Shown: piece by piece, positions 11,873-34,288 of the stretch
Layout of the letters: every line of letters begins with the position of its first letter
Numbering within the stretch: position 1 is the first letter of the stretch
Source: a virus
Lineage: Duplodnaviria > Caudoviricetes
Length of the DNA stretch: 62,400 nucleotides
Strand: one strand, 5' to 3'
IMG/VR virus record: IMGVR_UViG_3300030430_003380
Span: 1-62,400 of that record
Made by a program: the position numbers and the translations under genes
The notes under the pieces: model-generated
Told to the model about the DNA's origin: nothing
Database searches by the model: none
Seen by the model: the letters and a program-made list of their open reading frames with translations, nothing else

Positions 11873-11988
11873 AATTACTTGGTTTAATTGGTTAATAATG
11901 GCATAAAGATAATCAAATAATTGATACCTACAAGTACTGGTCTACTTGTACCCCTACACTTTTGATACATCTCTCTGCATATGTGTGC

Positions 11989-13031: not shown

Positions 13032-13062
13032 AATTAAAAGGTTAATTGGTTAATAATTTCAG

Positions 13063-14238: not shown

Positions 14239-14239
14239 T

Positions 14240-14434
14240 TTAATCTTGGTTTAATTGGTTAACTTTAACTCTCGTATCCATTTGTATTCTTAGATACTCT
14301 TTTCCATCATCATCTATATCTACATCAGCAATATTACAATCTATTAGATTATCAATCTGACATAAATCTGTAAATGTTTTTATGTGTAATTCACACATAT
14401 CGTTACCGAAATAATCTTCAATTTTAATTATCAT
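14240..14434 (-). CDS. Hypothetical early protein
   Basis: Promoter and leader motif upstream. Confidence 0.65.
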   Translation of the reverse strand: MIIKIEDYFGNDMCELHIKTFTDLCQIDNLIDCNIADVDIDDDGKEYLRIQMDTRVKVNQLNQD

Positions 14435-14463
14435 TTGATTTGGTTTAATTGGTTAATATTTTA

Positions 14464-14471
14464 CAAACATA
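14464..14471 (-). promoter_or_regulatory. -7 promoter element TATGTTTG
   Basis: Exact TAnnTTTG immediately upstream of leader motif. Confidence 0.7.
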
Positions 14472-14839: not shown

Positions 14840-14871
14840 TTTGTGATATTAAATTATTTTACCTATCATTG
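14840..14871 (+). promoter_or_regulatory. Bacteroidota-type promoter (TTTG-20nt-TATCATTG)
   Basis: -33/-7 spacing, followed by leader motif and 14905 ATG. Confidence 0.65.
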
Positions 14872-14904
14872 CAGAAGTAATTAACCAAATTAAACCAATT
14901 TATT

Positions 14905-15282: not shown

Positions 15283-15298
15283 CTTAAATTAAATAAAA

Positions 15299-17264: not shown

Positions 17265-17350
17265 AAAAAATTTTACCACTTGTAGTGTTCTATTAAAAAA
17301 ATTTTTACTACTTTTACCGACAGAAAGTTAATTTAATTAAAAAACCAATT

Positions 17351-17917: not shown

Positions 17918-18684
17918 TGAGTTTGAATAAGTTTATTAGTAAACTAACAGATGATACCTTTTATTACTCTGACTATGAGTTCGTAACTAATTCTCAGTTA
18001 GGGTTGATAAAACAGGATGTTAGAACTTATAAGATGATGAGGGATAATCCTGATCTTAACAAGGAAACTATGCCTATGATCTTTGGTAGAGCATATCATG
18101 TAGCTATGTTAGAGCCTAATGATTTTAACGATAAAGTTTTAGTTTTTGATTCAGCTACAAGAACTACTAAAGGGTATAAGGAATTTGTGTTAGCTAACCC
18201 TAACGCACCTACAATAATCTTACAAAAAGAATACGATAAGATTATGTATATGCAAGATGTATTGTTCTCTCACAGCGAGGTGAATGACCTGTTACAAAAG
18301 GAAGGTGAACGGGAGATTGCAAACGCTTGGCAGGATCATGATACTGATGTTTTCTGTAAGGCTAAAGCTGATTACAAGAATGGTAAAACTATTATAGATC
18401 TTAAGACTACAGGTGATGGTAGCTTATATGGTTTCTCTAACTCGTGTAAGAAGTATGGATACGATAGGCAATCAGCATTCTATTTGGATGGGTTTGGTTG
18501 TGATGAGTTTGTTTTTATAACTCAAGAGAAGGAAAGACCATACAACGTATCTATATTCTATGCTGGAGATGAGTTCACAGAGAGAGGTAGGGCTGAGTAT
18601 AAATACTTGTTAGATGTTTACAAGAAATTTTTTATAAATAATGAGGAAGTAGTAGAGGAACACATAATTATGGAAACGCTATGA
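17917..18684 (+). CDS. PD-(D/E)XK exonuclease (RecE/exo VIII-like, DUF3799)
   Basis: FGRAYH.AMLEP...CKAKAD...IIDLKTT...YGYDRQSAFY; paired with ERF. Confidence 0.88.
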   Translation: MSLNKFISKLTDDTFYYSDYEFVTNSQLGLIKQDVRTYKMMRDNPDLNKETMPMIFGRAYHVAMLEPNDFNDKVLVFDSATRTTKGYKEFVLANPNAPTIILQKEYDKIMYMQDVLFSHSEVNDLLQKEGEREIANAWQDHDTDVFCKAKADYKNGKTIIDLKTTGDGSLYGFSNSCKKYGYDRQSAFYLDGFGCDEFVFITQEKERPYNVSIFYAGDEFTERGRAEYKYLLDVYKKFFINNEEVVEEHIIMETL

Positions 18685-18887
18685 CCTTAAGAGAAAAACT
18701 AGAAGAACAACAGATTAGCGAAAGATGGCTATCAGAAAGATTAGGGTTGAGCAGACCTACCCTATTAAAGTACTTAAAAAAACCTAACGAGTTTAGAGTT
18801 AAACACGTTAAAAAAATTGTTGAGTATTTAAGAATAACTGAAAGGGATGCATTAACTAATTATTTTAAACACAAAAATTATGAGTAA
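18681..18887 (+). CDS. XRE/Cro-like HTH protein
   Basis: ISERWLSERLGLSRPTLLKYL helix-turn-helix. Confidence 0.75.
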   Translation: MTLREKLEEQQISERWLSERLGLSRPTLLKYLKKPNEFRVKHVKKIVEYLRITERDALTNYFKHKNYE

Positions 18888-19143
18888 ATCTGAAAAAATT
18901 TACATTGGAAATGGAACTGAGAAGTTCGATGGTGGTATCGTACAATTCTCTCTTAATCTAACAAAACTTAAAAACGAAGCTTCTGAGCATATGTTTGAGT
19001 ACAATGGAGATAAGTTTATTAAGTTAAAGGTAGTTAAGAAAAGAGAAGCTGATGAGTATGGTAAGACTCATTACGTTGAGGTGGACACATTTAAGCCAGA
19101 GCCTAAAAAAGTCACTACAGTAGATGATGATCTACCATTTTAA
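18880..19143 (+). CDS. Single-stranded DNA-binding protein (Bacteroidota phage type)
   Basis: Beta-rich core, DEYGKTH, acidic DDDLPF tail. Confidence 0.7.
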   Translation: MSKSEKIYIGNGTEKFDGGIVQFSLNLTKLKNEASEHMFEYNGDKFIKLKVVKKREADEYGKTHYVEVDTFKPEPKKVTTVDDDLPF

Positions 19144-19152
19144 TTGATAATG

Positions 19153-19239
19153 ATAGGCATGAGTGAGAGCAGTTAAACTCTAATAATCATAGCTACTGCA
19201 GGTAAGACTTCCGTACAAAACCTATGAGCCTATTTTTTT
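19153..19239 (+). ncRNA. Putative structured cis-regulatory RNA/attenuator
   Basis: Closing stem ATAGGC/GCCTAT, two internal stems, T-run. Confidence 0.3.
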
Positions 19240-19252
19240 AAAACCAAAGACC

Positions 19253-19738
19253 ATGATATTAAGAGTATCCGATAAAGACATAGTTGACACAAGTAAGATT
19301 GGTTACATCACCCTTGATGGACAAAAAATTATATTTGGTGATTTAACTTGGTCTATATATAATAATGAAATGGAAGCTCAATGTGTGTTCAATAATATAG
19401 TAAATCATATGCAGATTAAAGACATGAGGTTTGCTGAAAAGAAAACCATTCAGCCAAATGATAGAAAAGAAAAAGCATTTGAGATGTTCTGGAACCTGTA
19501 TGATAAAAAAGTATCGTACAGCCAAGCAAAAACAGCTTTCATGCAACTAACCTTGCAAGAGATGGGAAAGGCTGTGAAGTCAGTTAAAGAATATATAGAC
19601 TCAACACCAAATAAAGAGTATAGAAAAAACCCAACAACATGGATACGCCAGAAGTGTTGGAATGATGAAATAGTTTTAAATAAAATAAAGAAAAAAAATA
19701 GATACGTTAAGCCTAAATATATAACAGATGAAAGATAA
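19253..19738 (+). CDS. Replication initiator/helicase-loader-like protein
   Basis: FEMFWNLYDKKV...YRKNPTTWIRQKCWNDE C-terminal initiator motif; directly upstream of DnaB. Confidence 0.7.
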   Translation: MILRVSDKDIVDTSKIGYITLDGQKIIFGDLTWSIYNNEMEAQCVFNNIVNHMQIKDMRFAEKKTIQPNDRKEKAFEMFWNLYDKKVSYSQAKTAFMQLTLQEMGKAVKSVKEYIDSTPNKEYRKNPTTWIRQKCWNDEIVLNKIKKKNRYVKPKYITDER

Positions 19739-21050
19739 GGTTGAAATGGAAAAAAGGCTTATAGGTAAATTAATGTCAAAGCCAGACGAGTATTATGACT
19801 TACATGGAATGTTGTCTGAAGATATTTTTAGTGACAACATAAATAAAAGGCTTTACAAATCTATATCTACTATACTTAATAATGGTGGTAAGTTAGATAT
19901 GATAAATGTAACTAAAGGAATAAAAGGTAACGATGCTTCAATAAGATTAGCTGAATGCGTTTCACTTGATCACTACGCATACATAGGAAAGAATATAGTT
20001 TTATTTTTATCACAAGAAGATAAAAAAATTAAATTAAAAAGGTTAGCTAAATCAACAATTAAAAGGCTTGATGACGGAGATGATTTATTTGATGTTATAG
20101 AACATGTCGATGATCAGATGAAAATAATATCTGATATTAAGTCAAGTGAAATGCCTGACATAGTAAAACAACTTAAAGTTTTACATGATGATATAGATAG
20201 AAGAATGTCATCAAAGGACATGAACGGTCTACCTACAGGTTTTCAGTCTGTAGATAAATTTACTGGTGGTTGGCAAGCCACCGACTTAATTATAATAGGT
20301 GGTGCATCATCTATGGGTAAGACATCACTTGGTTTAGCTTTTTGCTATAACTGTGCTAAAGCAGAAATACCTGCTGCAGTGTTCTCATACGAGATGGGTG
20401 ACACACAGCTTTTACAAAGACTAGTTTCTTTAGAAAGTAAAGTTAACAATAGGTATATAATGAAGGGGACTATTGAAGATGATGAGCTTAAAAGGATACA
20501 TAAAGCTATAGGCAAGTTAGAAAAAACTTGTTTATTTGTTGATGAGTGTAAGGATTCATCTTTAAGTTATCTTTTAAATAAGATAAGAAAATATGTTATC
20601 GTAAAGAAGGTTAAGTTTTTCTTAATAGATTATCTTCAACTTGTTAAAGGTGTTGGAAGTTCTAGAGAGCAGGAAGTGGCTGTTGTTGCTCGTGAACTTA
20701 AGAATATAGCTAAGGAATTAGATGTAACAATAGTTGCGTTGTCACAACTTAGTAGAGCAGTTGAAAGAAAGGATGGTTGTAGACCAAGTCTTTCAGATTT
20801 AAGAGAGAGTGGTGAGATAGAACAAGCATCAGATATAGTTATGCTGGTATATAGACCAGAATACTATGGTATAATGACTGATGATAACGGTCAATCTACA
20901 GAAGGTCTTGTAGATTTGATATTCGCTAAAGGTAGAAATATAGGTACAGGAACGTTACCTCTTAGATTCCAAAAAGAATACACAAAGTTTATTGATCCAC
21001 AGGATTTTGAAGCTAAATTTATATCAGTTAAACCAGAAGAATCTTTTTAA
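19728..21050 (+). CDS. dnaB: Replicative DnaB-like helicase
   Basis: GGASSMGKT, IDYLQL, ALSQLSR, SDLRESGEIEQASD, AKGRN. Confidence 0.96.
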   Translation: MKDKVEMEKRLIGKLMSKPDEYYDLHGMLSEDIFSDNINKRLYKSISTILNNGGKLDMINVTKGIKGNDASIRLAECVSLDHYAYIGKNIVLFLSQEDKKIKLKRLAKSTIKRLDDGDDLFDVIEHVDDQMKIISDIKSSEMPDIVKQLKVLHDDIDRRMSSKDMNGLPTGFQSVDKFTGGWQATDLIIIGGASSMGKTSLGLAFCYNCAKAEIPAAVFSYEMGDTQLLQRLVSLESKVNNRYIMKGTIEDDELKRIHKAIGKLEKTCLFVDECKDSSLSYLLNKIRKYVIVKKVKFFLIDYLQLVKGVGSSREQEVAVVARELKNIAKELDVTIVALSQLSRAVERKDGCRPSLSDLRESGEIEQASDIVMLVYRPEYYGIMTDDNGQSTEGLVDLIFAKGRNIGTGTLPLRFQKEYTKFIDPQDFEAKFISVKPEESF

Positions 21051-21053
21051 ATT

Positions 21054-21137
21054 ATGATAGAAGTATTTTTAAGTGTCCTTTGTTTTATTTTATTATACAT
21101 GGCTTGGGAAATAGTTAAATATAATAGTAATAAATGA
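21054..21137 (+). CDS. 27-aa single-TM peptide
   Basis: Not in track; MIEVFLSVLCFILLYMAWEIVKYNSNK, TGA overlaps next ATG. Confidence 0.5.
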   Translation: MIEVFLSVLCFILLYMAWEIVKYNSNK

Positions 21138-21583
21138 GAAAGGAGCCTAGATTTGAGAGTCAAGAAGATAGAGATAGGGAAGCCGAAACTCTTCGTATAT
21201 TACTTGAAGGTAAAGACTTAACCTTTAATCAACTGGATAAATATGCACCAGTTGATGCTGAAATAATTGACAACAGAACAATGCAGGTTATATCTTTATG
21301 TGAGGTAAAGACAATGAGTCTTAATATGATAGACATAGAAAGAGTTAGAACATCTGTAAGAAAAATACAGCATTGTCAAAAAGAAGCTTTACAAAAAGGT
21401 TTACCACTATGTATAGCGTGGAGGTTCTTAGATGGTATTGGTTACATATGGATGCACAAAATAACAAAAGCCACAGTTGAGTGGGGTGGCATGAAAAACC
21501 CACGACCAGGATCTATATGGGATAGAGAATTATTATTCTACATAGATATGGATTTATTAACTATAATTAATTTTACAAAATGA
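21134..21583 (+). CDS. PD-(D/E)XK-fold nuclease-like protein
   Basis: YAPVD...CEVK motif. Confidence 0.6.
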   Translation: MRKEPRFESQEDRDREAETLRILLEGKDLTFNQLDKYAPVDAEIIDNRTMQVISLCEVKTMSLNMIDIERVRTSVRKIQHCQKEALQKGLPLCIAWRFLDGIGYIWMHKITKATVEWGGMKNPRPGSIWDRELLFYIDMDLLTIINFTK

Positions 21584-21774
21584 GTAAACAAGAAAAAGAA
21601 GAAGAAAAAAACTACAGAAGACAAAAGTTTGATTGCGAGATGAGATTTAATATTGTTGAACTAGCAAGTCAAATGAAAGGTGATCTAAAGGAAAACACTA
21701 GAAACTTAGCCTCATATGTTTTTACAGGATACTTTCCTCAACCTGAAGAAGAAAAAAATAAATCAAAAAAATAA
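21580..21774 (+). CDS. Hypothetical protein
   Basis: Coupled ORF. Confidence 0.6.
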   Translation: MSKQEKEEEKNYRRQKFDCEMRFNIVELASQMKGDLKENTRNLASYVFTGYFPQPEEEKNKSKK

Positions 21775-21804
21775 TTCGTATCTTGCAGGCTACAATAATA
21801 TAGC

Positions 21805-22044
21805 ATGTCGAGTAAGAGTTCTAAGTATTACAAAAAAAATAAAAAGTCATACGCAAAGAAAAAAAAGTATGACTCCAAATATTCTTCATCAGAGAAGAGA
21901 AAAAATTATCGTGTTAAGCTAAACTTTTTTAATAGAAAAAAAGGTAAAAAAGGTGACGGAAAAGATGCATCACACACTAAGTCTGGCAAAATAGTATTAG
22001 AGAGTCAATCTAAAAACAGAGCAAGAAATAGAGGTAGGAAGTAA
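21805..22044 (+). CDS. Basic degenerate HNH-like protein
   Basis: KGDGKDASH...KNRARN motif. Confidence 0.6.
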   Translation: MSSKSSKYYKKNKKSYAKKKKYDSKYSSSEKRKNYRVKLNFFNRKKGKKGDGKDASHTKSGKIVLESQSKNRARNRGRK

Positions 22045-22049
22045 TTATT

Positions 22050-22526
22050 TTGTATCTTGGCTTGATGCGATTCAAACGAAGAAAGGGAAAGCAGATAACT
22101 AAAGCTAAGAAACACGTTGCAGATGGAATCACATTTGCCTCTGGCTTAGAGCTTTACTGCTACAGAGCATTAAAAAAAGCAAAGATCCCCCACGAATATG
22201 AAGGAAAGACCTTTGAGCTTGTAGACAAATTCAAGTTTGAAGGTCTTCTTATGGATAAGGGTAAGACAAAGGGTAAGACTACCTTTAAGAAAAAACCTGG
22301 AAACATAAGAAACATAACCTACACACCCGACTTCATAAATTTAAAAAAAGGTTTTATTATAGAGACGAAAGGTATAAGGACTCCTGAGTTTAAGATGCGA
22401 TTCAAGCTGTTCTTAAAACACCTGTATGATACAGGTCAGAAGTTAGATGTTTATGTCCCATCAAATCAAAAGGAGGTAGATGCTACAGTCGATACCATCT
22501 TAGGTCGGGGTCCTTATAAAAAGTAA
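22050..22526 (+). CDS. Endonuclease I/DUF1064-like Holliday-junction resolvase
   Basis: DGITFASGLE...YE...TYTPDF...IIETKG; start probably MRFKRRK (22065). Confidence 0.8.
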   Translation: MYLGLMRFKRRKGKQITKAKKHVADGITFASGLELYCYRALKKAKIPHEYEGKTFELVDKFKFEGLLMDKGKTKGKTTFKKKPGNIRNITYTPDFINLKKGFIIETKGIRTPEFKMRFKLFLKHLYDTGQKLDVYVPSNQKEVDATVDTILGRGPYKK

Positions 22527-22605
22527 AAGGAGGGAACCACCCCTCCTTTCATATCAACCAAAAAACCAATCAGAATGACGTCCCAGAACGGGACTAAGAT
22601 TAGTA
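22522..22605 (-). ncRNA. Putative ~80-nt small RNA
   Basis: TACATTTG at 22609-22616, GTCCC/GGGAC hairpin, U/G-rich linker, terminator. Confidence 0.4.
22526..22549. terminator. Terminator hairpin between convergent transcription units
   Basis: AAAGGAGGG-aaccac-CCCTCCTTT. Confidence 0.85.
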
Positions 22606-22651
22606 GTACAAATGTAATAATATTATTTATAAAAAAACGTATAATAAAATA

Positions 22652-25600
22652 TTATTTATAAGTATCTCCTATTGGTAATCTTAAAACCTTACCATGATCC
22701 CTCCACACTCTATTAATAATATGATCAGCTAGATGATTAGGCACTTTCAATTTATTAATCATAAGCTCTTTACTTTGATTTAAAGTATAGTGGTGAGCCC
22801 TTGCTGCAGCCACTAATACAGCCATCTGATCAACAAAGCCACTAAGATGTGGATCATAAAGAGGACTAAGTCTATTTAGTCTGCTATTTAGCTCATCCTG
22901 ATCGTACAAATTAAACTTCTCTCTGTTTAGTAAAGGTAGATTAATACCTTCTTCATAGAATATTTTATTACCTTTAGCTCTAGACTTAATCTTATTGAAC
23001 TGATCAGATAACTTAAACTGAGCTGATGTATCAGTATATATTCTACTTACTCTAAAACCAAGTAGTGCAGATATTTCATAAGAAACAACCCTTCTCTTGT
23101 CTGGATCAAAAGCATCATACAACTTAAACCCTTGCATAGCTGTAGAAGGTGCAAGCTTACCGCCAACGTATGTAACTACAGCAGGAATTATATCGTACCA
23201 TGGAGCTTCTTTATTGTATATTCTTTCAAACTCATTATCTCTAGCCTCTTGTATAGCGTTAAGAGTCATTTCCTCTGACAAGAATGGTTTGTATATTGTC
23301 TCTAGTATTCTAACTAAAGCGTCTTTACCATCTTTACTATCCACACCCTTAACAGCTATTCTAATCATATCTCTTATGTATCCTATACCAGACATCTTAG
23401 ACATGTTAACATAATCAACGTAAGGTCTACCTTGTTCATCTACACCACTACCTTTAGGTACTACGAAACCTGTTTGATCCCAATCAGGTTGTAATGCTCT
23501 TAGGTATCTTTTCTCAACCTCTTCGTCATCTCCTGCACCAAGTAACATTTGAAGCATCATTAGTTGTAAAGATTCTACAAGTGTTATTGTAGCTATAGAT
23601 GAGGCAAGTCTTGTTACACCCATTGATTTCAACTCTGGGTTACCACTACTCATCTCATTAAATGCTAGCATTACAGAGTTCTTAGCACATCTGATAGACT
23701 CAGCCTGGAATGCTACGAAGGTACCAACAAAAGGTGATCGACCTATGAATCTAATTATTCTAGGTATCTCATTATAGTTAGGGTAAGTGTTTCTTACATT
23801 CTCTGCGGCAACTAGGTCTGCCTCGTTTTCAGAAAGACCAGCTTTCATGTATTTTTCTTTCTCACTTAAAAATCCAAATATCTTAAATACATCATCTTCA
23901 GCTTGATACGCAGCAGTTAGTTTTTGATCTAATGTCTTTAACAACTTAGCTATATCACTTTCAGACTTGTTTGCAAAGAAAGTGTCAACATCAAAGTCTG
24001 CATCAGATAAATCTTTTGCTATACCTCTAATTTCTTGTAATGATGCAGACGAACTAACTACTCCAAGCTTGACTAGTTTTTTATAAAGATCTTTCATCTC
24101 AGGATCTTTAAACGTAGATACAGCTTGTATAGCTACCCTAGCAGAAGTAAACAACTTCTTACCATCCAAGTGACCATTCATTAACATGAAAGAAGAGTTA
24201 CCTATAATATTTCTTGTATGAGTACCAACACTCCAGATAGTCTTCATCTTTTTACCAAACATAACTACCTTCATGTATTGCTGATAGAAGTAGTTATCAA
24301 ACATATTCATCTTTCTATCAATCTCACTCAATACAGAGTACATCTCATCATCCAAGAAGTAACCATTTAAACTTCCAAATCTAGGATCTTTAACTTGGTT
24401 GTTAAACCCTTGATTTAATATCGCAGGTCTTCTACCAGATTCATCTGGTGGTGACAAGAATAATCCTTCACCAATATCTATAAGCTCTCTGTACATTTTA
24501 TCAGAGGTCACAGTTCTTGCTATCTTAGATATAGTATTTGTATAGTTGTAGAAAGGATCGTGTATCTCACCAAGTAAATCTCTAATCTCTACTGGTAGAT
24601 CTTCATTTCTAGCCATGAATATAGAACCAACTCTAGTTAATGCGTTACCAAAACCTTGTGAATAAGTCTGTATTCTTTCAGCTCTTGAAGTTTCATCTCC
24701 ATTCTGTATTATATCTAAGTCTTGTTTAGCAAAATCATAAGCCTCCTGCTCTGATAGTTCAGGATTTTTTTCCATATGAGCATTGGTCATAAAGTTCAAA
24801 GCTCTGTTAATTATCTTTTGATCTTCTTGCTTCCAACCCTTCTTCTCATACTGTCTGTATCTTCTTGTAAGATAAACACCAAGATTAGCATCAACCTTAA
24901 GAGTTGTAGGACCATCAACAATCTCCTCTCTAATTAAAGTTTTACTGAGCTGATCTATATGATCTCTCATGTTTATAAAAGCAGCTTTAAGTCTAGGGTT
25001 TCTTAACCTTAGTATCTTAGATCTGTCAGCTAAAAGCTCTGTGGCTTTTTGACCATCTATTTTTCTCTTACCAGAAACACTATTATTATATTCTATTATA
25101 GCAGCCTTAACTTCTTTAACGTTTTCACTAGCCTCAAACAACTCTTTATTTAAAGCACCTTGTGCCACAGTCATAAGGTCTTTAACCTCTTTACTACTAT
25201 GAGTACCAAATGGTTTTGCAAACAATCTAGATAACCTAACATCATACTGCTTGTCAGATATAGCCTTGAATGATGTAGCCCACCGACCTAAATCATAATC
25301 TCTTTCTATCATCATACGACCTATATCCCAAAGAACAGCAAAACCACCACGTCTATAAACAGTTCTACCTTGCTGGTTTGCTAGTTGGAATCTAGTTTTC
25401 GTATTAGATCTTACAGGTTCCCAAGTTGTAGCCATCTGTTTTCCACTATCATCAAACAAGAATCCTTGGAATCCTAATCCAGAGGCTAACTTAGCAATCT
25501 CTTCCATCTGATTGTAAGATACATCTTTAGACTTAACTTCTTTAGTATCTATGTTATCACAACAATCCTTAAGACTTTCTATCACTTCTTCAGATATATG

Positions 25601-28600
25601 CTCTGGGTAGTTAATCTTTACAGATAAACCTGTCTCTGTAGGTATAACTTCAGATGTATTTATGTGACCAAAGTTATCTGTATCTTCAAGAGCATGTCTA
25701 ACTAAGAATAAGCTAAGATTCATAGCATCCATATCCTTAGTTTCAAAGTTTAGGGTAGACTCCATTCTGTTTTCTGAATCCTTAAACCTATCTATATTGT
25801 AGTTAGCTACATCTCTTAGGTTTAGTGGATCCTTGTCTAGTGGATATAGTCTATCCATAGGGAACATAGATTTAACTTGAACGTCACCTATTCTTGAGTT
25901 TTCTTTTATATCAAGATTAGTATCAAAGAATGCTCTAGATCTAGACCACTTATTGTATTGTTCGTTAGAGAATGGTGTCATCTTCACGTTAGAAGGATCT
26001 ACCATCTCTGTATTTTCTGGAGCATAATGACTTAGAGATACCATGTTATCTATAATCTCCATATCTGGATACTCATTCTTAAGCTCCTCATAAGAGTCTG
26101 TAAGTTTAGCAAACTGTCTAGGATTTAAATTGCTAGTACCATTTTGATTAAGTTGGAACTTAGCTATACCTTTATTCTTGTGAGACTCCACCATATCCTG
26201 AGTTATAGGGAAGTTTCTAGCTCTCATTGGTTGTTTCTCTATAATCCCTCCACTTTCTAAATATTCAACAACTTTATCAGATAGTTTAAGTTTTGAAAGT
26301 AGGCTATTTCTATCAGCAACCAAAGCACCATCAATAGCAGCTTTAACTGGATTTATTAATTCTTTTAAATTAGATACGCCAATTTCTTGGGCTGACTCAG
26401 GAAATTCGTCAATTTTTTCTCTAATTGGCATAAGAAAACCATTTTGAAGATCATCTAAAAACGCTTCCTTACTCTCGTATATAGGAACAGACTCCACCTC
26501 TACGCTTTGAGTTATTCCCTCACCAACAGTTGTCCCTCCAAATGTTGAAATACGATTGACAAGTTTTTTACCTTTCGTGTATAGAGTTAAAACTTTACCA
26601 TCTTTCCTTAAACCTGTAGCATTACCAAGAAGCATGTCTATCTTTTGAACTGCAGTCCTAATCTCAACATCAGTTTCTACCTTAACTTCTTTTACAAGAT
26701 CTTCCCTTAGGTTACCTTTAGGACTCTCCATCTCATCTAACAAAACTGCTTCAACAGTATCTTGAAGGTATGTTTGAGTAATAAGGTTGTATAATTCATT
26801 ACTTATAGTACCATCCTCTTCAACCTGTATATCTATGAAGTCTAAAGGACTCTTACCTTCTCTCTCAAACTGACCTCTAACAATATTAGGTAGAGTATTG
26901 TCGTAGAAGTTTTTTAAACCTTCAGCTTGTTTACCCTCTGTAGGGACACCCTCTATCACCACACTCTCTTCACCAGTAATTAAAGCTACAGAGTCGTAAC
27001 CATTTTGTATAGCCACCTTCATTGCAGCTCTGACAGCTAGACCTGTATTCTTTGTTATATCACTCCAAGGGAAGTTAGGAACTCTATTTAAAACTTTAGT
27101 ATTCCTACTGAACTCTTTACGAACTTCCTCAAGATCTAAATCTTCTATTTTTTTCTCTAAAGCTTTTTTCTTAGAATTATAGTTTTCCCTCATAGAAACT
27201 ATCTCACGAGTTAAGCCATTAGCACGAGGATTAAATCCATTTAACTCCTCTGTAGTATTTAAACTAGAACCAAAATAAGTATCTAGTTTTGTCTCTAGCT
27301 CTGCAATCTTCCCATCATCTGGGGTAGTAGAGTTTATAAGTGTTGTTATTTGACTATCAAAATCTTCTAGTTCACGCTTATGTTGCTCTTCAAGACCGTC
27401 AAGAATTTGATCTCTAGTTGACTGAAGATCAATAATTTCATCGTAAAGTCTACTCTCTTCAACTTGTAATCTATCTATTTTAGCAGACAACTCACGACTC
27501 TTATCTCTAGCCTCAACTATATCTTTTAGTTCAGCAAAACCTTTCTTTCTACCTTCAGCCTCCCAATCAGATTGAACCTCTAGTATTAACAAAACTTTCT
27601 TACCATCCACAATCCTATCCTCTGTTCTAACAAATCCAACTAGGTTATCATTAAACCCAGTAAAGTGTCCACTGGTGTGGATTGTTTCACCTTTAGGGTT
27701 AAGGTTTATAAGTATGTTTTGAGGATTGTTTCTATCTTTTCTATTTCTATTTCTACCCCACGATACTGTAGCGTACTTAGAATTATATTTTTCTCTTAAC
27801 TCAGCTAAACTATTAACTCCAGGAAACAGAGATGACTTTGCTACAAAGTCAGATAGAACGATATACCTAACATCATTAGGCTCATTAACTCCACTATCTC
27901 TTATTGTTGTTGGCTCATTAGTGTTTAAAAAGTTTACAGCTATACCTGATAACCTGAAAGAATTAAGATCAAAGTCTTCATCAACACCTGTCATTTTGTG
28001 AGTTTCAATATCACCATTAGGCATTTTAATATCAAACGTTATATCGTAGGTAATATTTCCCTCATCATCAGGTACTCTTATATCTTTTTGAATTACACGA
28101 GAAACATTCTTCACAGTAACATCACCAAAATCTTTTTCTTCAATAACAAAGTTTTCACCTAATAAAGTAACCTCAATATCTGGAGTTAGGTTGTTAACTA
28201 ACACCTTTACATCTTCATATGTAGGATTCTTACCTGTAGTCTTAACTACGGTGTTCAAAGCCTCCTCTAAACCTGTAGATTTTATCTCATCACCAACACC
28301 CTTAACACCTGTGTCCTGCATTAACTTAATCCACTGCTTAACAGGTTTTCTAAACTTTCTACCTTTCTTAATTGTATTTAAGGTAGTGATTAAGTTAGAG
28401 TCAAAGTTCAGTGAGTTTCTTGCACTTAACTGAAACTTAGTTTCTTCTATGGTTATAGCATCAGGATCAAAGACAACATAGTTTCTAGCGTCACCTTCCT
28501 TATATGTCATACCATCTATACCAGCAGAAAGCATTAACATGGATGCTTCTTTCTGTGAACCTAGCTGACTCTCTAACTGTCCATAAAGTTGTGCTGTTGT

Positions 28601-31600
28601 AATGTTAGACTTCTCCTCAATCATGTAAGCTCTGTCAGCCTTACTAACTTTATCGTCACCAATCATCTCATCTACAATCTTCTCAACTGTTTCAACAGGA
28701 ACCTTAGAGTCCCAGTCTAAGTAGTCATACTCGTGATGTTGTTTTCCTGCGTGGAGTGAAACCTTAACTAAAGTACCAGCTCTTTTATAATTAGGTCTTA
28801 TATCATTGTTAGCCCAATCAAGAAGGTCTTGCGATGCTTCGTATTCAAATCTAAATTGATTTACTGCTGAGTCAAAATCAGACGTACCCTCTAGTAAATC
28901 TAAAAATATAGACTTCATCTCCATCTCTCTATAAGCTTCTTGAGATCTTACAGCACGAGCTTTATTCACCAACATAGTGTTGTACTCATGTACAGGCATG
29001 CTACCTATCTTATCATCTGCTGATGTAACTGATCCATCTCTATAACCTTTAGCTACTTCTTGCTCACTAGAGAAATAGAAACCATGACCATACTGAAGGT
29101 GACTCTTAATATAATTAGGGTTAAACTTGTCTATATTATTTGGACCACCATGATATAAATTACTTATTTGGAATCTACCAAACGCAGCATCACCGCCAGT
29201 AAAGTCATTAATAACATCTACGTTTGTTACAATACCACCATACATAGCAACATTGTAAGCTGACCTGTCTTGCTTATGCTTGAAAGGAATAGGTTTATTT
29301 TTCTTCTTTTCTGTCTCAGACATATAATTAGGAAAGGCTTCCTTTATATGAATAAACTTATTGAATATTTTGAAGTTACCTCCAGGTAAAACAAAAGGAT
29401 AACCAGGGTGATGACCAGCATCTCCCTCCTTAGTTTCTTTAATCGTAGCGTTAGTGTCTAAGTCTACAACACCAATAAGGTCACCCATTCTAGCATTCTC
29501 TATGAGTGGCTCGTTAACAAACTTTAATAAATCTTCAGGTCTAGGTAAACCAAGTTTTTTATTAAACTCAATCTTGTACAACTCTTGCATCACTTTGTTT
29601 CTATCACCAGTACCTATGGTTCTCATGTAGGCTTTAAACTCATCAAAGTTTTTAAACTTTTTCTTTGGTAAGTTTGTGTCTCTCTTTAATTTTTTTCTCT
29701 TACCTGTAACCTTATCTGTTTCCCAAAAATGATTAAGAACTGCAGCTTTATTAAAGGTGTTGTTTATCTGAGCTATAATTTCATTTCCAAACTTTTTATT
29801 GTTTTTTGATAAAGCTAACTCAACTTCTTTCTCAACATACTCTATAAAGTTTAAGTTTCCAGAAATAGAAGCGTTACTCATAGCCATAAAGACAACCTTT
29901 GTAACATCATCTTTTTTAAGTTTGTTTAGTAGGTTTTCAGCTTTAGACTTAGTAGTCCAAGCCCAACCTCCAGTGTCTTTCATCATAGGGTATAGTAATC
30001 CACCCATCATCTTATGCTTAACTCCAGTATCACTAGTTATATTACCAACTGAAGACCTGTCGATAGGAGCCACATAAACCTTTTCTCCATTTAAATCTAT
30101 AATAGATCCTACAGGAATATCTGTTTCTGAAAAATCAAATCTTTCTCTAAGCTGAAACTTAGATGGACCTCTATCAGATAGTAAATCTTCAGACACCTCT
30201 ACAAAGTCTGTAAGCATATCCTCACCAGCCTCAAGAGAGTTTTTTGTCATCGAATTATACTTAGCTTGGAACATTGCAACCTCTGTTGGCTCACCAACTT
30301 CAAACTCGTTTCCTGCTATGTTAATTTTCTTACCAGCTACGAAAGACTTAGCTAAACCTTTTTTAAGGTCACCTAGATTCTGTACAGTATCAAGTGTTAG
30401 ATCAAATATTTCACCATCAAAGTCAACGCCAAAGTAATGTTGTATAATATTCTTTACAGCCTGTTTTATTCTACCAAGAGTGCTTTGACTTCTTATAAAT
30501 TGATTTACAGCAGCATCACCCATCATCTCAGCAAAAGCTTCTTCAGTAAAGTATGCTCTCTTCTCTGCTGCAGACTTATCTTTTAAATAAGATGCAACCA
30601 TTTCGTTATTACCATACAACTGTTTAGCCCACTCGTAGTAAGACAACCTGATCCTTCTACCATCTTCAAGAACTATAAGCTTTGAATCTGATACTCCATC
30701 TGCTTTTCTTACAAGCTTTTCTATTTGTTTATATATCTTTCTACCTTCCTTTGTAGTCTTTAATTTATTTACCAAAGGATGTATTATCTCGTGGAACAAA
30801 GTATTACCTTGTATGTATTCCATGTTAAGATATATGGTGTCACCAAGGTAGAAAGCTGACTGACGAGAGTGACCAACTGGATCGTTGACCCCCTTTTGTG
30901 CTAGCATCTGAGCCATAGAGTCAGAGTTTCTAGCTATAGAGAAGTTAAGGTTACCTATAGATGATAACATCTTAACAATGAATCCTAATATTTTTTGTCT
31001 ACTATTAGGGTAGCCTTCAAAGAATGTAGCATCATAGTTTTCGCTAGTTGAGTCTAACTGATCCATGTTGTCAGCGTTAATATCCTTACCATGAACAGCC
31101 TCGTTTGTACCAAATCTTATAGAGAACTTTCTACCATTAGCATCTTTCATTATAAAGAAACTAGCACCATTTCTAGCGTCTGGTGATTTCTCTACAATAC
31201 CGTTTACAGACTGAACACTACCATTACTATTTAGAACACCTGTCTTACTTGAGAACACAGAAGTTTGACCAAAATTTCTACCCAGATTTAAAGCCTGAGC
31301 ATCTGTAAGCCCTTCAACCATGAACGATTCTTTAGACACTCCATTCTCTACAGTCCTAACAGTTTTATATTTAACTCCAAGGGCATCTAGCCTAGCCTTT
31401 AAGTTAGTAGACCTATTTTTGTTTTGCTCTGCAGTGTATCCATTCTTTTGCGATGATACAATATGGTAGTCTTTCTGTAAGTCATCTTGAGATACAGAGT
31501 CCATACTCTTAGCATCAGCTTTTCTAAACTCTAAGTTATTCTTCTTTACAAGCTCTGCCTTAGCATTCTCTTTAGCCATATCAGCTTTCTTCATCTCCGC

Positions 31601-34288
31601 CTGTCTGTGAGCCTCTAATAATTGATGTGCAGTTTCGTAATTTATGTTAGCAAACTCTATGGTGCCAACATCAGCACCAAGACCCTTACCTTGTTTACCT
31701 GAGTCTACAAGAACAGCAGTACCATCATGTTTTACAACAAACTCAAAAGTCCTATCCTGTAAAGCATCAAACTCTCTAGCACCTGTAGTAGCCTTAGCTT
31801 CTTTATCAGTTTGTTCTATATACTCTTCAAGTTTAGCTATCTGACTTTCTGTTAAAATCTTACCAAGCTGATTAACGTTTACACGAACAGCACTACCAGA
31901 TCCGACACCTGCTTCAGCTAACTTCTGTTCTACATACTCTATTCTGTTTTCGTTTATCTCTTTTTTGGTATACTCACCATCTTTATACTGAAACTTCTCC
32001 TCTGCTTCTTTCTGAAACTTTCTAGTCAAAGCTTTTTTTACAGCCTGAAACTCATCCTCTCCCTCTTTAGATACAGTGAATGAACCAGCTTGAAAGTCTG
32101 CAAGATTACCAATAGATATTCCTTTACTCTTTAAGAAAGAGTTTAATCTAGAGATAGTGCTTTCGTAAACTTTACTGGTAACAACAGTACCCTTATCAGC
32201 TATCAAAGCATCTATCTTAGATAAAGTCTCTTGTATACCATTTATTATATCAGCAGCACCACCATTCTTTACATTATTTTTATCTACAGATTCAATAGTT
32301 TTCAAGGACTTATCAAGTTCTTTAACCAACTCTAGCATAGAATCTCTAGCCTCCATAGCATCTTGACTGGTGTACCCCTCTAGTTTAGCTTTCATTTTAG
32401 CCTCTACTTCTGAGTCAATAGAGGTGTCAAACCCTATATCACCATTAGCTACAGCAGCTAAATTAGTTTCATCCTGAAAGAACAATAATGCATCCCTTCT
32501 AGTTAAAACTCTTTCGCTACCTGTCTTGTTATCAGTTATAGTTATAGAAGCTAAATTTTCTAAATCACCACTAATATCCTTCATAAAAGAATACCTAAGT
32601 TGTCTACTACCAATAACACCACCCATACCTGCACCAAGAATACCAGCATCAGTAACCTTCATTACAGCGTCAACGAAACTCTCTGGGGTACCAGCACCTG
32701 TTATAGCGTCATTAAGGATATTAGTAACCTCTGTACCCATCTCTGACCCAGCTTCCATACCCATGCCCTTGAAGTAATTTTTAACAAAGTTTTCTGACAT
32801 CTCCGTTGGAACATCAACTAACTTCATTTTACGCAGCTTACGCATAGTGTTTATATACTGGTAGGTAGGTATTTCAAATATCATCTCAGCACCACCACTA
32901 ACCATAGAGTTTATAGCTATCATAAGGGTACTCATGTCTACCTCACCTCTCTCTCTCATGTCCTTAAGGTCTAAAGACTTTTGACCATAAGCACTGGTAC
33001 CCATAGCACCTAAAGTTATACGCTGTGCTGCAGTTGTAGACAATCCAGCAGCTCCAAGAAACGCACCACCAGCATACATAGATAAGATCTGTGGTGCTGT
33101 TTGTGCTAAACCATTTCCAAACTGAGCTATAGCGTTACCAATGTTACCCTCTGTTAAAGATTCTGTAATACCATCAAACTCATAAGCTCTAGTTTTTTTC
33201 ATCCAAGATTCAGAACTCTCTTTAAGTGATCTTGCTATCTCACCACCATATCTATTGTAAGCTGTTATATTGTAATTGTTCATAGAGCCATAAGCAAGGA
33301 TTCCCTCTAAAGGCTCTATAATACCAGCAAGTAAACCTAGACTACCGCTAGCAAAAGAGTCAGCTAAATCACTAAACTGACCACCAGCCTCTAACTGTCT
33401 CTGATATAGGTTATTAAGGTAAGCACCCATCTCACTATTCTCAACCATTATAGGAGATATGTAGACATCATTCTTACCTTCTTGAAGGTCGTCTACAAAA
33501 TCTTGGTCTAACAAAGACTCCTTCATCTCTACAGGACTAACGTTTTTACCGTTAATCTTGAAGTGTTCCATCTGAACAAAAGTCTCATCTATACCCCTTT
33601 CTTTGAGGACATCCTCAATCTCACTTGGAGCATAGTTAATTACAGCATCATTAAAGTTTTGGGTGTTATAAGCTATGTCAGCTTCCTTAAACTCTTCTTT
33701 AAATAAATCTATTCTAGAGTTTAGAGTAGATAATTTATTATCGTTCATACGAGCATCAGAACCATAAGGATCCTTCTCTAACTTCATTTGCAACTCTCTT
33801 TGTTGCTTTAAAAGTTCTTGATAATATCGGTAATCTACACCGTAGTTTTCATACCATTGAGCCTTATATTCTTCTGTAGTTGGTACTTTTGATTGCTCTT
33901 CTTGTTCAAGCTTAACTTGTTTTTGCTTAAACCTATTCTCTGCAGATTCTAAAAGATAGTCTGAGTCTTCCGATTGAGATGTAATAGGTTCTTGATCTTG
34001 ATCCATGCTGACTTCCATAGTAGGCTCCGCATCTGAAGAATCTTTTTTTTTTACATCTTCTTGTGAAACATCTTGCTTAGGTTGTTGCTCTTTAGGTTTT
34101 TGTTCAACCCCCATAAGACTAGCAAAATCTTCTAAGCTATCTTCATAACCGTCTTGTTTAAATAAACCATAAGAGTGCGACAAAGCCTCTGGGTTTTCAG
34201 ACATAAGTATTTTAAATTCATCTAAACTATCACTATATCCATCTTTAGTGAATAAATCGTAGGCATACTGAATTGCTTCTTCGTTCAT
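22652..34288 (-). CDS. Giant polyvalent virion/ejection protein (zincin HExxH, DUF3293-like, ART-PolyVal-like, LPD38-like C-terminus)
   Basis: FHEIIHP...EEAFAE; LYHG...YGHGFYF...AGIDG...YVVFDP; VRNTYPNY...PFVGTFVAF; last gene of tail/ejection block. Confidence 0.85.
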   Translation of the reverse strand: MNEEAIQYAYDLFTKDGYSDSLDEFKILMSENPEALSHSYGLFKQDGYEDSLEDFASLMGVEQKPKEQQPKQDVSQEDVKKKDSSDAEPTMEVSMDQDQEPITSQSEDSDYLLESAENRFKQKQVKLEQEEQSKVPTTEEYKAQWYENYGVDYRYYQELLKQQRELQMKLEKDPYGSDARMNDNKLSTLNSRIDLFKEEFKEADIAYNTQNFNDAVINYAPSEIEDVLKERGIDETFVQMEHFKINGKNVSPVEMKESLLDQDFVDDLQEGKNDVYISPIMVENSEMGAYLNNLYQRQLEAGGQFSDLADSFASGSLGLLAGIIEPLEGILAYGSMNNYNITAYNRYGGEIARSLKESSESWMKKTRAYEFDGITESLTEGNIGNAIAQFGNGLAQTAPQILSMYAGGAFLGAAGLSTTAAQRITLGAMGTSAYGQKSLDLKDMRERGEVDMSTLMIAINSMVSGGAEMIFEIPTYQYINTMRKLRKMKLVDVPTEMSENFVKNYFKGMGMEAGSEMGTEVTNILNDAITGAGTPESFVDAVMKVTDAGILGAGMGGVIGSRQLRYSFMKDISGDLENLASITITDNKTGSERVLTRRDALLFFQDETNLAAVANGDIGFDTSIDSEVEAKMKAKLEGYTSQDAMEARDSMLELVKELDKSLKTIESVDKNNVKNGGAADIINGIQETLSKIDALIADKGTVVTSKVYESTISRLNSFLKSKGISIGNLADFQAGSFTVSKEGEDEFQAVKKALTRKFQKEAEEKFQYKDGEYTKKEINENRIEYVEQKLAEAGVGSGSAVRVNVNQLGKILTESQIAKLEEYIEQTDKEAKATTGAREFDALQDRTFEFVVKHDGTAVLVDSGKQGKGLGADVGTIEFANINYETAHQLLEAHRQAEMKKADMAKENAKAELVKKNNLEFRKADAKSMDSVSQDDLQKDYHIVSSQKNGYTAEQNKNRSTNLKARLDALGVKYKTVRTVENGVSKESFMVEGLTDAQALNLGRNFGQTSVFSSKTGVLNSNGSVQSVNGIVEKSPDARNGASFFIMKDANGRKFSIRFGTNEAVHGKDINADNMDQLDSTSENYDATFFEGYPNSRQKILGFIVKMLSSIGNLNFSIARNSDSMAQMLAQKGVNDPVGHSRQSAFYLGDTIYLNMEYIQGNTLFHEIIHPLVNKLKTTKEGRKIYKQIEKLVRKADGVSDSKLIVLEDGRRIRLSYYEWAKQLYGNNEMVASYLKDKSAAEKRAYFTEEAFAEMMGDAAVNQFIRSQSTLGRIKQAVKNIIQHYFGVDFDGEIFDLTLDTVQNLGDLKKGLAKSFVAGKKINIAGNEFEVGEPTEVAMFQAKYNSMTKNSLEAGEDMLTDFVEVSEDLLSDRGPSKFQLRERFDFSETDIPVGSIIDLNGEKVYVAPIDRSSVGNITSDTGVKHKMMGGLLYPMMKDTGGWAWTTKSKAENLLNKLKKDDVTKVVFMAMSNASISGNLNFIEYVEKEVELALSKNNKKFGNEIIAQINNTFNKAAVLNHFWETDKVTGKRKKLKRDTNLPKKKFKNFDEFKAYMRTIGTGDRNKVMQELYKIEFNKKLGLPRPEDLLKFVNEPLIENARMGDLIGVVDLDTNATIKETKEGDAGHHPGYPFVLPGGNFKIFNKFIHIKEAFPNYMSETEKKKNKPIPFKHKQDRSAYNVAMYGGIVTNVDVINDFTGGDAAFGRFQISNLYHGGPNNIDKFNPNYIKSHLQYGHGFYFSSEQEVAKGYRDGSVTSADDKIGSMPVHEYNTMLVNKARAVRSQEAYREMEMKSIFLDLLEGTSDFDSAVNQFRFEYEASQDLLDWANNDIRPNYKRAGTLVKVSLHAGKQHHEYDYLDWDSKVPVETVEKIVDEMIGDDKVSKADRAYMIEEKSNITTAQLYGQLESQLGSQKEASMLMLSAGIDGMTYKEGDARNYVVFDPDAITIEETKFQLSARNSLNFDSNLITTLNTIKKGRKFRKPVKQWIKLMQDTGVKGVGDEIKSTGLEEALNTVVKTTGKNPTYEDVKVLVNNLTPDIEVTLLGENFVIEEKDFGDVTVKNVSRVIQKDIRVPDDEGNITYDITFDIKMPNGDIETHKMTGVDEDFDLNSFRLSGIAVNFLNTNEPTTIRDSGVNEPNDVRYIVLSDFVAKSSLFPGVNSLAELREKYNSKYATVSWGRNRNRKDRNNPQNILINLNPKGETIHTSGHFTGFNDNLVGFVRTEDRIVDGKKVLLILEVQSDWEAEGRKKGFAELKDIVEARDKSRELSAKIDRLQVEESRLYDEIIDLQSTRDQILDGLEEQHKRELEDFDSQITTLINSTTPDDGKIAELETKLDTYFGSSLNTTEELNGFNPRANGLTREIVSMRENYNSKKKALEKKIEDLDLEEVRKEFSRNTKVLNRVPNFPWSDITKNTGLAVRAAMKVAIQNGYDSVALITGEESVVIEGVPTEGKQAEGLKNFYDNTLPNIVRGQFEREGKSPLDFIDIQVEEDGTISNELYNLITQTYLQDTVEAVLLDEMESPKGNLREDLVKEVKVETDVEIRTAVQKIDMLLGNATGLRKDGKVLTLYTKGKKLVNRISTFGGTTVGEGITQSVEVESVPIYESKEAFLDDLQNGFLMPIREKIDEFPESAQEIGVSNLKELINPVKAAIDGALVADRNSLLSKLKLSDKVVEYLESGGIIEKQPMRARNFPITQDMVESHKNKGIAKFQLNQNGTSNLNPRQFAKLTDSYEELKNEYPDMEIIDNMVSLSHYAPENTEMVDPSNVKMTPFSNEQYNKWSRSRAFFDTNLDIKENSRIGDVQVKSMFPMDRLYPLDKDPLNLRDVANYNIDRFKDSENRMESTLNFETKDMDAMNLSLFLVRHALEDTDNFGHINTSEVIPTETGLSVKINYPEHISEEVIESLKDCCDNIDTKEVKSKDVSYNQMEEIAKLASGLGFQGFLFDDSGKQMATTWEPVRSNTKTRFQLANQQGRTVYRRGGFAVLWDIGRMMIERDYDLGRWATSFKAISDKQYDVRLSRLFAKPFGTHSSKEVKDLMTVAQGALNKELFEASENVKEVKAAIIEYNNSVSGKRKIDGQKATELLADRSKILRLRNPRLKAAFINMRDHIDQLSKTLIREEIVDGPTTLKVDANLGVYLTRRYRQYEKKGWKQEDQKIINRALNFMTNAHMEKNPELSEQEAYDFAKQDLDIIQNGDETSRAERIQTYSQGFGNALTRVGSIFMARNEDLPVEIRDLLGEIHDPFYNYTNTISKIARTVTSDKMYRELIDIGEGLFLSPPDESGRRPAILNQGFNNQVKDPRFGSLNGYFLDDEMYSVLSEIDRKMNMFDNYFYQQYMKVVMFGKKMKTIWSVGTHTRNIIGNSSFMLMNGHLDGKKLFTSARVAIQAVSTFKDPEMKDLYKKLVKLGVVSSSASLQEIRGIAKDLSDADFDVDTFFANKSESDIAKLLKTLDQKLTAAYQAEDDVFKIFGFLSEKEKYMKAGLSENEADLVAAENVRNTYPNYNEIPRIIRFIGRSPFVGTFVAFQAESIRCAKNSVMLAFNEMSSGNPELKSMGVTRLASSIATITLVESLQLMMLQMLLGAGDDEEVEKRYLRALQPDWDQTGFVVPKGSGVDEQGRPYVDYVNMSKMSGIGYIRDMIRIAVKGVDSKDGKDALVRILETIYKPFLSEEMTLNAIQEARDNEFERIYNKEAPWYDIIPAVVTYVGGKLAPSTAMQGFKLYDAFDPDKRRVVSYEISALLGFRVSRIYTDTSAQFKLSDQFNKIKSRAKGNKIFYEEGINLPLLNREKFNLYDQDELNSRLNRLSPLYDPHLSGFVDQMAVLVAAARAHHYTLNQSKELMINKLKVPNHLADHIINRVWRDHGKVLRLPIGDTYK

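Follow-up and report, generated by a model that had tools for sequence, protein, structure and literature searches.

A putative minus-strand small RNA complementary to the early-gene start regions of an uncultured phage

Introduction

The IMG/VR virus record IMGVR_UViG_3300030430_003380 (Caudoviricetes; 62,400 nt), analysed here over its whole length and referred to as the window, is a whole record with an estimated completeness of 99%. In the 125 bp gap between the stop of a gene for a 3878 aa protein (22652) and the stop of a convergent nuclease gene (22526), the window carries a short minus-strand unit made up of a promoter-like box, a hairpin, a linker and a terminator. The locus raises the question of whether it encodes a regulatory RNA directed at the translation starts of the phage's own early genes, or whether it is a leader, a recombining cassette, a coding region or a DNA-binding site. 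A sequence-only reading of the window had proposed that one putative late, trans-acting small RNA acts against an early regulon and perhaps also against host mRNAs, and had offered as an alternative a plus-strand leader for a 28 aa ORF. Judging from sequence comparisons, we give an even chance to the proposal that the locus encodes a trans-acting, anti-start-site small RNA of ~85 nt, transcribed from the minus strand.

The Bacteroidetes promoter consensus is TAnnTTTG, and initiation in this phylum relies on an unstructured A-rich leader and not on Shine–Dalgarno contact (PMC7366714). Since TAnnTTTG boxes precede genes in the window, and the leaders are A-rich and lack Shine–Dalgarno sequences, the host appears to be of Bacteroidetes type, and probably belongs, more exactly, to the Flavobacteriia.

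Anatomy of the minus-strand unit

The box, hairpin, linker and terminator described by the sequence-only reading were all found on the minus strand (Table 1). Its remark that the box TACATTTG has no -33 element was also correct, and most of the other likely promoters of the window lack one too. Boxes of the same TAnnTTTG class were found before genes at 5960, 37209, 53472, 49500 and 14471 on the minus strand, and at 9147 and 5991 on the plus strand. The 86 nt RNA folded at -28.8 kcal/mol into a hairpin, an open stretch and a terminator, and a 111 nt minus-strand RNA folded at -30.9 kcal/mol; its z-score was -2.93, and 1 of 200 shuffled sequences folded equally well.

The core of the linker (22569-22556, minus strand) reads TTGGTTTTTTGGTT as DNA and UUGGUUUUUUGGUU as RNA, and the CAU of the linker (22577-22575) is the complement of a plus-strand ATG. 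The linker as a whole is hereafter called the seed, and its 3′ half was predicted to be unpaired (probability 0.5-0.9). It should be noted that the terminator overlaps the TAA stop codon (22524-22526) of the convergent plus-strand gene and also ends that gene. No Rfam family matched the region 22000-23200 at E <= 1, and none matched the whole window at the gathering score.

Table 1. Positions of the predicted RNA unit, its predicted targets and adjoining genes in the window
Feature	Position	Strand	Basis or remark
-7-type promoter box TACATTTG (TAnnTTTG class)	22609..22616	-	AT-rich DNA 5′ of the box overlaps the end of the giant gene
Predicted small RNA, ~85 nt	22518..22604	-	5′ end inferred from box position, 3′ end from terminator T-run
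5′ hairpin, 5 bp stem GUCCC/GGGAC, loop GUUCU	22580..22594	-	Fold and covariation
Linker of 32 nt, the candidate anti-leader ('seed') stretch CGUCAUUCUGAUUGGUUUUUUGGUUGAUAUGAA	22548..22579	-	Complementarity to early leaders
Intrinsic terminator, 12-pair stem 22551-22524, loop UGGU, T-rich tail to 22518	22518..22551	-	Stem-loop and T-run
Predicted target: start of 64 aa early gene (14240-14434)	14435..14465	-	Duplex -26.1, best of 64
Predicted target: start of 76 aa gene (14008-14238)	14239..14270	-	Duplex -23.2; motif inside the end of the upstream ORF
Predicted target: start of 125 aa gene (14905-15282), first of the plus-strand early/replication block	14875..14904	+	Duplex -21.1
Predicted target: start of 71 aa gene (11657-11872)	11873..11900	-	Duplex -20.5
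Predicted target: start of DUF932 gene (12039-13031)	13032..13060	-	Duplex -20.3; Pfam DUF932
Predicted target: start of Erf-like gene (17351-17917)	17325..17350	+	Duplex -20.1; exact 11-mer; PHROG Erf
28 aa ORF, judged a non-gene	22575..22661	+	Unconserved in presence, length, frame and sequence
3878 aa virion structural gene, last of the structural block	22652..34288	-	phrog_22602 virion structural protein
Convergent DUF1064 / Holliday-junction-resolvase-like gene, stop abuts terminator	22050..22526	+	Pfam/PHROG

Complementarity to early-gene leaders

The leader motif AACCAA-N(1-8)-AACCAA occurs five times in the window against an expectation of 0.12, and 0 of 100 shuffled sequences reached five. 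In four cases a real start codon (11872, 14238 and 14434 on the minus strand, and 14905 on the plus strand) follows the motif at 5-7 nt, and the remaining copy is the linker itself as read on the plus strand.

Duplex energies were calculated between the linker and the -35 to +9 regions of 64 crude gene calls. Over all 64 start regions the mean was -11.6 kcal/mol (SD 4.3), and the mean of the five best duplexes was -22.4, compared with -14.5 +/- 1.2 for 100 shuffled linkers, none of which did as well. Six of the 64 start regions reached -20 kcal/mol or better, all of them belonging to early or recombination genes and none to structural genes; among the 22 genes of the structural block (22.6-62.3 kb), no duplex was better than -14.7. 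The predicted targets lie 5-11 kb from the RNA locus, and some are on the other strand. The strongest predicted duplex of the 64 (-26.1 kcal/mol) was with the 14434 leader and start codon, the very region whose reverse complement the linker had been said to mirror. The motif of this target (14454-14440) lies just downstream of a box TATGTTTG (14471). Pairing with the ERF leader, likewise claimed earlier, was supported by an exact 11-mer in common (17339-17349) and a predicted duplex of -20.1 kcal/mol.

Co-variation of seed and leader motif

The early start regions of the window (genes at 11657-19738) and of the relatives G003, G009 and G011-G014 are conserved over 15-25 nt, with a motif that is specific to each genome. 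This conservation far exceeds the A-rich context needed in Bacteroidetes.

The genomes compared were the window, five complete or near-complete relatives and one relative that is 78% complete. The 7-mers over-represented upstream of start codons differ by genome. The early leader motif is ATTAACCAATTAAACCAA in the window and TAAACCAAAAATCAAATCA in G003, and in G009, G011, G012, G013 and G014 it takes the form of variants of AACCAAAAACTA(A/G)AAACT directly before ATGAA. When reverse-complemented, the RNA tract of each genome resembles the leader motif of that same genome, start codon included. The relatives have CAUAG in the RNA opposite a CUAUG start context in the early genes, and the window has neither. 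The longest exact matches between tract and start region were 11 nt in both the window and G003, 18 nt in G011 (to the replication initiator), 13 nt in G012 and 12 nt in G013, the last two to other early genes.

The own-genome mean of the five best duplexes beat 100 shuffled seeds in six of the seven genomes (0/100 in each). In a 7x7 matrix of seed-by-genome energies, the double-centred diagonal was reached by 9 of 5040 permutations, and by 3 of 720 when the near-duplicate G011 was left out, counts that serve as indications and not as probabilities.

The start of the replication initiator was also considered as a single conserved target, in nine clades from which the near-duplicates G005, G002, G006 and G011 had been dropped. 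This idea was borne out only in part, as the seed ranked its own initiator start first in only three of the nine clades, and the target is therefore better called an early start-region family than one gene.

Conservation of the unit and its functional strand

The unit recurs in roughly 55 distinct uncultured viral contigs, and was recovered with three independent search handles. The C-terminal 400 aa of the giant protein yielded 13 stretches, of which three were confirmed (loci at 86, 85 and 38% identity); the seed-plus-terminator pattern yielded 17, of which eight were homologous loci; and the profile of a small protein of 43 aa encoded downstream in relatives confirmed 47 of 65 loci. A pattern for the terminator alone retrieved 49 loci, 47 with the small ORF, 48 with a TGGT[TG] tract and 46 with a box, three being truncated. 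The sequence-only reading would have lost its footing had the seed not been conserved, and the tract was kept in 48 of these 49 loci.

To count the box, the 47 profile loci were reduced by seven exact duplicates and five truncated loci, and four were collapsed as identical, leaving 31 unique relatives. A TAnnTTT[GA] box was present in 31/31, 45-86 nt upstream of the terminator, and was invariant in alignments A2 and A3. The layout in relatives consists of the box, a variable 5′ part, a U/G tract ending in (U)UGGUU, 4-10 nt, and the terminator. Long forms with a 5′ GC hairpin were found in the window, L039, L083, a large near-identical group, L067 and L046/68. Short forms have no such hairpin and display the anti-start CAU in the loop of a weak A/U stem instead. 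The flanks and hairpin stems diverge between relatives and the tract stays; in 15 representative relatives the seed was predicted to be open.

The viral contig L109 (541 nt) carries the same terminator preceded by a TTTGGTTTAG tract, with an unrelated gene upstream and neither box nor small ORF. A module of hairpin and tract may be able to travel from one genetic context to another.

Covariation in related phages, suggested earlier as a check, was found as compensatory changes in both stems. In 19 long forms, four of the five pairs of the hairpin had changed on both sides with 100% of cells paired, giving stems such as GUCCC/GGGAC, GCACC/GGUGC, GCUCC/GGAGC, GUUCC/GGAAC and UUCCC/GGGAA, among others. 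The 10 bp consensus stem of the terminator was 98.4% paired, with compensatory changes in 4/10 pairs. Jointly, the two helices had 98.9% of cells paired and both-side changes at 8 of 15 pairs. For four of five covariation measures the observed value was reached by 0 of 500 shuffles, the fifth ('further pair types') being reached by 216 of 500, and slid controls were all far lower.

That the linker mirrors the reverse complement of a leader and that the plus strand carries a sense copy of the leader are one and the same fact, and strand is the question. Over both helices there were 42 G-U cells and no A-C cells, which fits the minus strand only, and the T-run after the stem and the promoter box are likewise found on the minus strand only. 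These features, together with a plus-strand ORF that is not conserved, identify the minus strand as the functional one.

A second antisense copy and related modules

A looser search for the motif in the window, with 1.34 matches expected, gave 8. It revealed another antisense copy, UUGGUGUUGAUUGGUUA, which had not been mentioned earlier; this one lies at 13156-13142 on the minus strand, just after the stop of a minus-strand early gene. It stands immediately 5′ of another minus-strand terminator (13139-13114). In a read-through RNA this copy pairs with the DUF932 leader (13040-13053), enclosing the terminator, in a cis helix of -41.4 kcal/mol (z = -5.09; 0 of 200 shuffles). A shorter equivalent of the helix forms in G003, and among the other predicted terminators in six genomes none had such a tract. 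The predicted helix may sequester the start site in cis or serve in processing. As leader:anti-leader pairing is plausible in cis in the same phage, it lends weight to the trans reading.

Modules with a GGAGGGG-type hairpin and a leader precede the replication initiator in G012 (31290-31365), G004 (~4580-4630) and G007 (~8455-8505), the loci L094, L033 and L037. By their resemblance to an inverted paralogue of the small-RNA locus, these modules suggest that the putative RNA gene arose by inverted duplication of the upstream region of a target.

Proposed mechanism

We propose that the RNA would start a few nucleotides after its own Bacteroidetes-type -7 promoter, placed past the last structural gene, and would stop at the intrinsic terminator. 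The U/G-rich stretch between hairpin and terminator is antisense to the early A/C-rich leader and start codon, and would pair in trans with the early and recombination starts at 14434, 14238, 11872 and 13031 on the minus strand, and at 14905 and 17351 (ERF) on the plus strand. Such pairing would occlude the unstructured A-rich leader that Bacteroidetes ribosomes require and thereby reduce translation of the early regulon; it might also lower the stability of early mRNAs. Because initiation needs an unstructured A-rich leader, covering ~15-25 nt at the start should be effective, as it is for the Bacteroides RNA GibS. The location of the unit behind the last structural gene is suggestive of a late role. 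The same class of box serves early and structural genes, so the box class gives no clue to timing.

The earlier claim of a trans-acting RNA directed against an early regulon is thus strengthened by a conserved minus-strand unit, above-chance complementarity and co-variation with the leader motif; that the RNA accumulates as a discrete species, when it does so, and that it represses by pairing is what we infer.

Several observations weigh against this proposal. The best duplexes in the window are interrupted: 9 bp are followed by an internal loop and a series of shorter blocks. Within the window seed, GAUUGG was predicted to be half paired with the 5′ end of the RNA. The G003 seed was weak against shuffled seeds (6/100), and a reversed-seed control told nothing for G000 and G003, where the core is much the same in either direction. 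Comparison of the seed with the start region of the replication initiator over the nine clades was significant overall (29 of 20000 permutations) but mixed, given the first rank in only three of them. The permutation counts are weakened by the relatedness of the genomes and by the crude gene calls, which were longest ATG ORFs. Gene conversion of a repeated cassette (concerted evolution) could also yield genome-specific similarity. L064 and L065 retain only part of the tract, and in L109 this hairpin and U/G tract stand behind a gene and lack a box. The near-obligate linkage to the downstream ORF points to some role in cis.

Relatives were present as contigs only in a marine metatranscriptome (X1; 0.11 of words) and in a run of unspecified kind (X2; 0.26). 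In X1, a relative's contig of 1381 nt, unstranded, spans 22292-22522 and 22525-23530, with 144 extra letters between 22522 and 22525, where relatives carry the small ORF. A contig that gives no strand, ends or level counts neither for nor against transcription.

The downstream ORF and a possible role in cis

An ORF of 43 aa, not mentioned by the sequence-only reading, lies directly downstream of the unit in all relatives except L135. Its ATG is 12-25 nt past the T-run, with no room for a separate promoter. The protein has two hydrophobic stretches and 20 invariant residues (L002 1844-1972, L003 5362-5490, L004 5398-5526 and 44 further loci), and matched no family in Pfam or PHROG. Neither this ORF nor a small acidic convergent ORF found in L004 is present in the window. 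Since L026/L047, which matches the window almost throughout (98% identity of the replication protein in G005), retains the 43 aa ORF, its loss from the window is recent. L135 is a second case in which box, tract and terminator are present and the ORF is absent.

In relatives, the RNA would be the terminated 5′ part of the transcription unit of the 43 aa ORF, and so may be a leader-derived small RNA; read-through of the terminator would also express the ORF, giving the RNA a cis role as well. A cis leader is compatible with such a dual role, and is a rival to the trans-acting RNA only in an exclusive form. In that form, the promoter serves the 43 aa ORF, the terminator is an attenuator that keeps the small hydrophobic protein low or conditional, and the U/G tract is a protein-binding site or functionless. 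The recent loss of the ORF would then have left the window with a leftover leader that still terminates two convergent genes. The 47/49 loci that carry the ORF so close behind the T-run fit this explanation, and the order of promoter, short terminated RNA and gene resembles that of attenuators and of the lambda pR'-tR' unit. We nevertheless consider an exclusive cis leader rather unlikely, because it leaves unexplained both the antisense image of the genome's own early starts and their joint change. Folds of the window RNA and of 15 relatives contained no alternative antiterminator pairing, and the seed does not pair with the start region of the ORF, which ranked 19-75 among 47-80 start regions as a seed partner. 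L135 and the window, moreover, keep box, tract and terminator without the ORF.

Two other functions for this arrangement were rejected. A type I toxin-antitoxin pair, in which the RNA would act on the mRNA of a small hydrophobic protein, was ruled out by the poor duplex rank just given and by duplex energy (-10 to -15 kcal/mol for the whole 43-aa-ORF mRNA against the RNA, compared with -19 to -26 for the best early targets). A lambda-type late antitermination unit was rejected because a single 43 aa ORF and then convergent genes lie downstream, and nothing follows in the window.

Other explanations

A second possibility is that the locus is a repeated intergenic cassette without antisense function. 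Recombination, for which the phage has its own Erf and exonuclease, would have spread and homogenized 'hairpin + leader' modules. One of these, inverted, would have come to rest at the boundary of the structural block, where only its hairpin would matter, as a bidirectional terminator. Promoter/stem-loop cassettes mediate shuffling in T4-type phages in a comparable way. Sense-oriented hairpin-plus-leader modules do stand before real genes (L017, L018/L024, G012 at 31336, G004 and G007), and the window holds a second inverted copy at 13142-13156. Set against this, the inverted copy occupies the same place, with a box on the antisense strand at a fixed distance, even where the C-terminus of the giant protein is only 38% identical, and the tract persists while its surroundings diverge. 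On the transcribed strand, moreover, each of the two inverted copies in the window directly precedes a terminator, a pattern to be expected of an RNA function and not of neutral cassettes. We regard the cassette explanation as decidedly unlikely.

The alternative offered by the sequence-only reading, in which the plus strand carries a genuine leader for a short peptide or a ribosome-loading site, fared worse. Read on the plus strand, the motif is indeed a sense copy followed by an ATG at the distance seen in leaders, and an ATG lies within 50 nt of the hairpin in 26 of 32 unique variants. The other six have none, the peptides of the remaining variants range from 2 to 46 aa and are unrelated, and one-base indels shift the frame among near-identical relatives. 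The T-run, the G-U pairs and the promoter box belong to the opposite strand, and the plus-strand site follows a hairpin and is antisense to the giant gene. The 28 aa ORF was rejected as a gene, and we find this explanation very improbable.

Equally hard to credit is an operator at the DNA level for a phage DNA-binding regulator, placed at early promoters and here, for although the motif is a repeat of 14-18 bp with one copy right after the early -7 box at 14471, its sense copies keep a constant 5-7 nt distance to start codons and occur only on the coding strand, even inside operons or an upstream ORF (14238), the motif of relatives includes the start codon itself, and in RNA the copy at 13156-13142 pairs strongly with the leader of the following gene.

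Comparison with known systems

The closest parallel to the proposed trans-acting RNA is GibS of Bacteroides thetaiotaomicron, described as the first trans-encoded small RNA with known targets in Bacteroidetes, an intergenic RNA whose extended, conserved single-stranded seed pairs across the start-codon regions of targets and represses them (PMC7366714). The two have in common TAnnTTTG promoters, the absence of Shine–Dalgarno sequences and start-region pairing, which for the phage RNA is a prediction. GibS differs in being chromosomal, with its seed at the 5′ end and few metabolic targets, whereas the putative RNA described here is phage-encoded, has its seed just 5′ of the terminator, and is predicted to act on the phage's own early genes, which share one leader. 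The two are not related in sequence (no Rfam match).

The c4 RNA of phages P1 and P7 blocks translation by pairing around a ribosome binding site that is encoded elsewhere than the RNA (PMC12197685). The likeness consists in being a phage RNA whose complementary parts are exposed in loops or other open positions. The c4 RNA matures from the operon transcript that also carries ant, its only target, and functions in temperate-phage immunity. In contrast, the RNA proposed here would come from a separate promoter-terminator unit and have several predicted targets, and no lysogeny genes were seen in the window. Membership of the c4 family was rejected, as there was no Rfam match at E <= 1 and the predicted targets lie outside the RNA's own operon, 5-11 kb away.

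RegA of phage T4 is a protein that shuts down a set of early phage mRNAs at their translation starts. Here the proposed effector is an RNA instead of a protein, and it would recognize its targets by pairing with the leader that they have in common. The lambda pR'-tR' unit, in which a promoter closely before a strong terminator gives a short 6S transcript with a gene beyond, resembles the arrangement in relatives; to our knowledge the 6S transcript has no antisense seed. Downstream in the relatives is a single 43 aa ORF and no late operon, and no Q-like factor or qut-type site was noticed, no search having been made for either. Trans-acting small RNAs derived from leaders or untranslated regions (UTRs), such as the riboswitch-terminated RNAs of Listeria and the 3′ UTR-derived RNAs of enterobacteria, are terminated leaders or terminator-proximal mRNA segments that also serve as pairing regulators, and they carry the seed beside a terminator hairpin. 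Unlike the riboswitch-terminated RNAs, the phage unit has no evident ligand-binding fold.

Genome setting

The window has a G+C content of ~33%, and no tRNA genes were found in its 62.4 kb. Its structural block consists of minus-strand genes from 22652 to 62332, which encode a portal, several virion structural proteins and giant proteins of 1338, 2068 and 3878 aa. The plus-strand block (14905-22526) encodes Erf, an exonuclease, a replication initiator, a DnaB-type helicase and the DUF1064/resolvase-like nuclease, and the minus-strand block from 14434 down to ~9574 contains small genes without known function and the DUF932 protein. No lysogeny genes were noticed.

The two divergent early blocks are separated by a 470 bp non-coding region (14435-14904). 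Within it we observed locally higher G+C, a GT-rich run, and a terminator-like plus-strand hairpin with a T-run near 14674-14730. This region could have room for an origin or a further small RNA, with a predicted fold z-score of only -1.79.

A blastn search of 21000-24000 against the phage collection gave no match, and the helicase had only matches below 60% to cultured phages, which were unrelated. The C-terminus of the giant protein showed 22-31% identity to proteins of cultured Cellulophaga, Pelagibacter and Pseudoalteromonas phages. The last 300 aa resemble a Pseudoalteromonas phage protein annotated as an ADP-ribosyltransferase (27%), as well as structural proteins of Cellulophaga and Pelagibacter phages. 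The nearest cultured phages are Cellulophaga podophages, at merely 22-31% identity over part of the giant protein, and with matches this remote there is no model phage for comparison. The profile of the 43 aa protein found no relative in 185,579 species genomes, and hence no host or prophage copy.

Implications

It is possible, and we put this forward tentatively as a wider view that may well prove wrong, that the early genes of each of these phages carry a private, genome-specific 'address' of ~15-25 nt including the AUG, and that this address and a co-evolving antisense RNA, encoded where the structural block ends, together form a temporal off-switch for the early regulon, an RNA counterpart of T4 RegA, with the copy at 13156-13142 doing the same in cis for the next gene. 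In the literature covered, comprising listings, abstracts and the accessible part of a review (PMC12197685), we found neither a phage RNA directed against a start region common to early genes nor a regulatory RNA from Bacteroidetes phages.

Very little has been worked out about post-transcriptional control in Bacteroidetes and their phages. If the wider view is true, the RNA would be the first regulatory RNA described for a Bacteroidetes phage, and the early genes would be the first phage regulon silenced via a shared translation start region. A trans-acting RNA of the kind proposed would, if it holds up, account for early leaders that are far more conserved than translation in Bacteroidetes demands, and would offer a compact, portable repressor/leader pair for the genetics of Flavobacteriia. 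In uncultured marine phages, finding an anti-leader RNA and then its matches would provide a readout of the early regulon from sequence alone.

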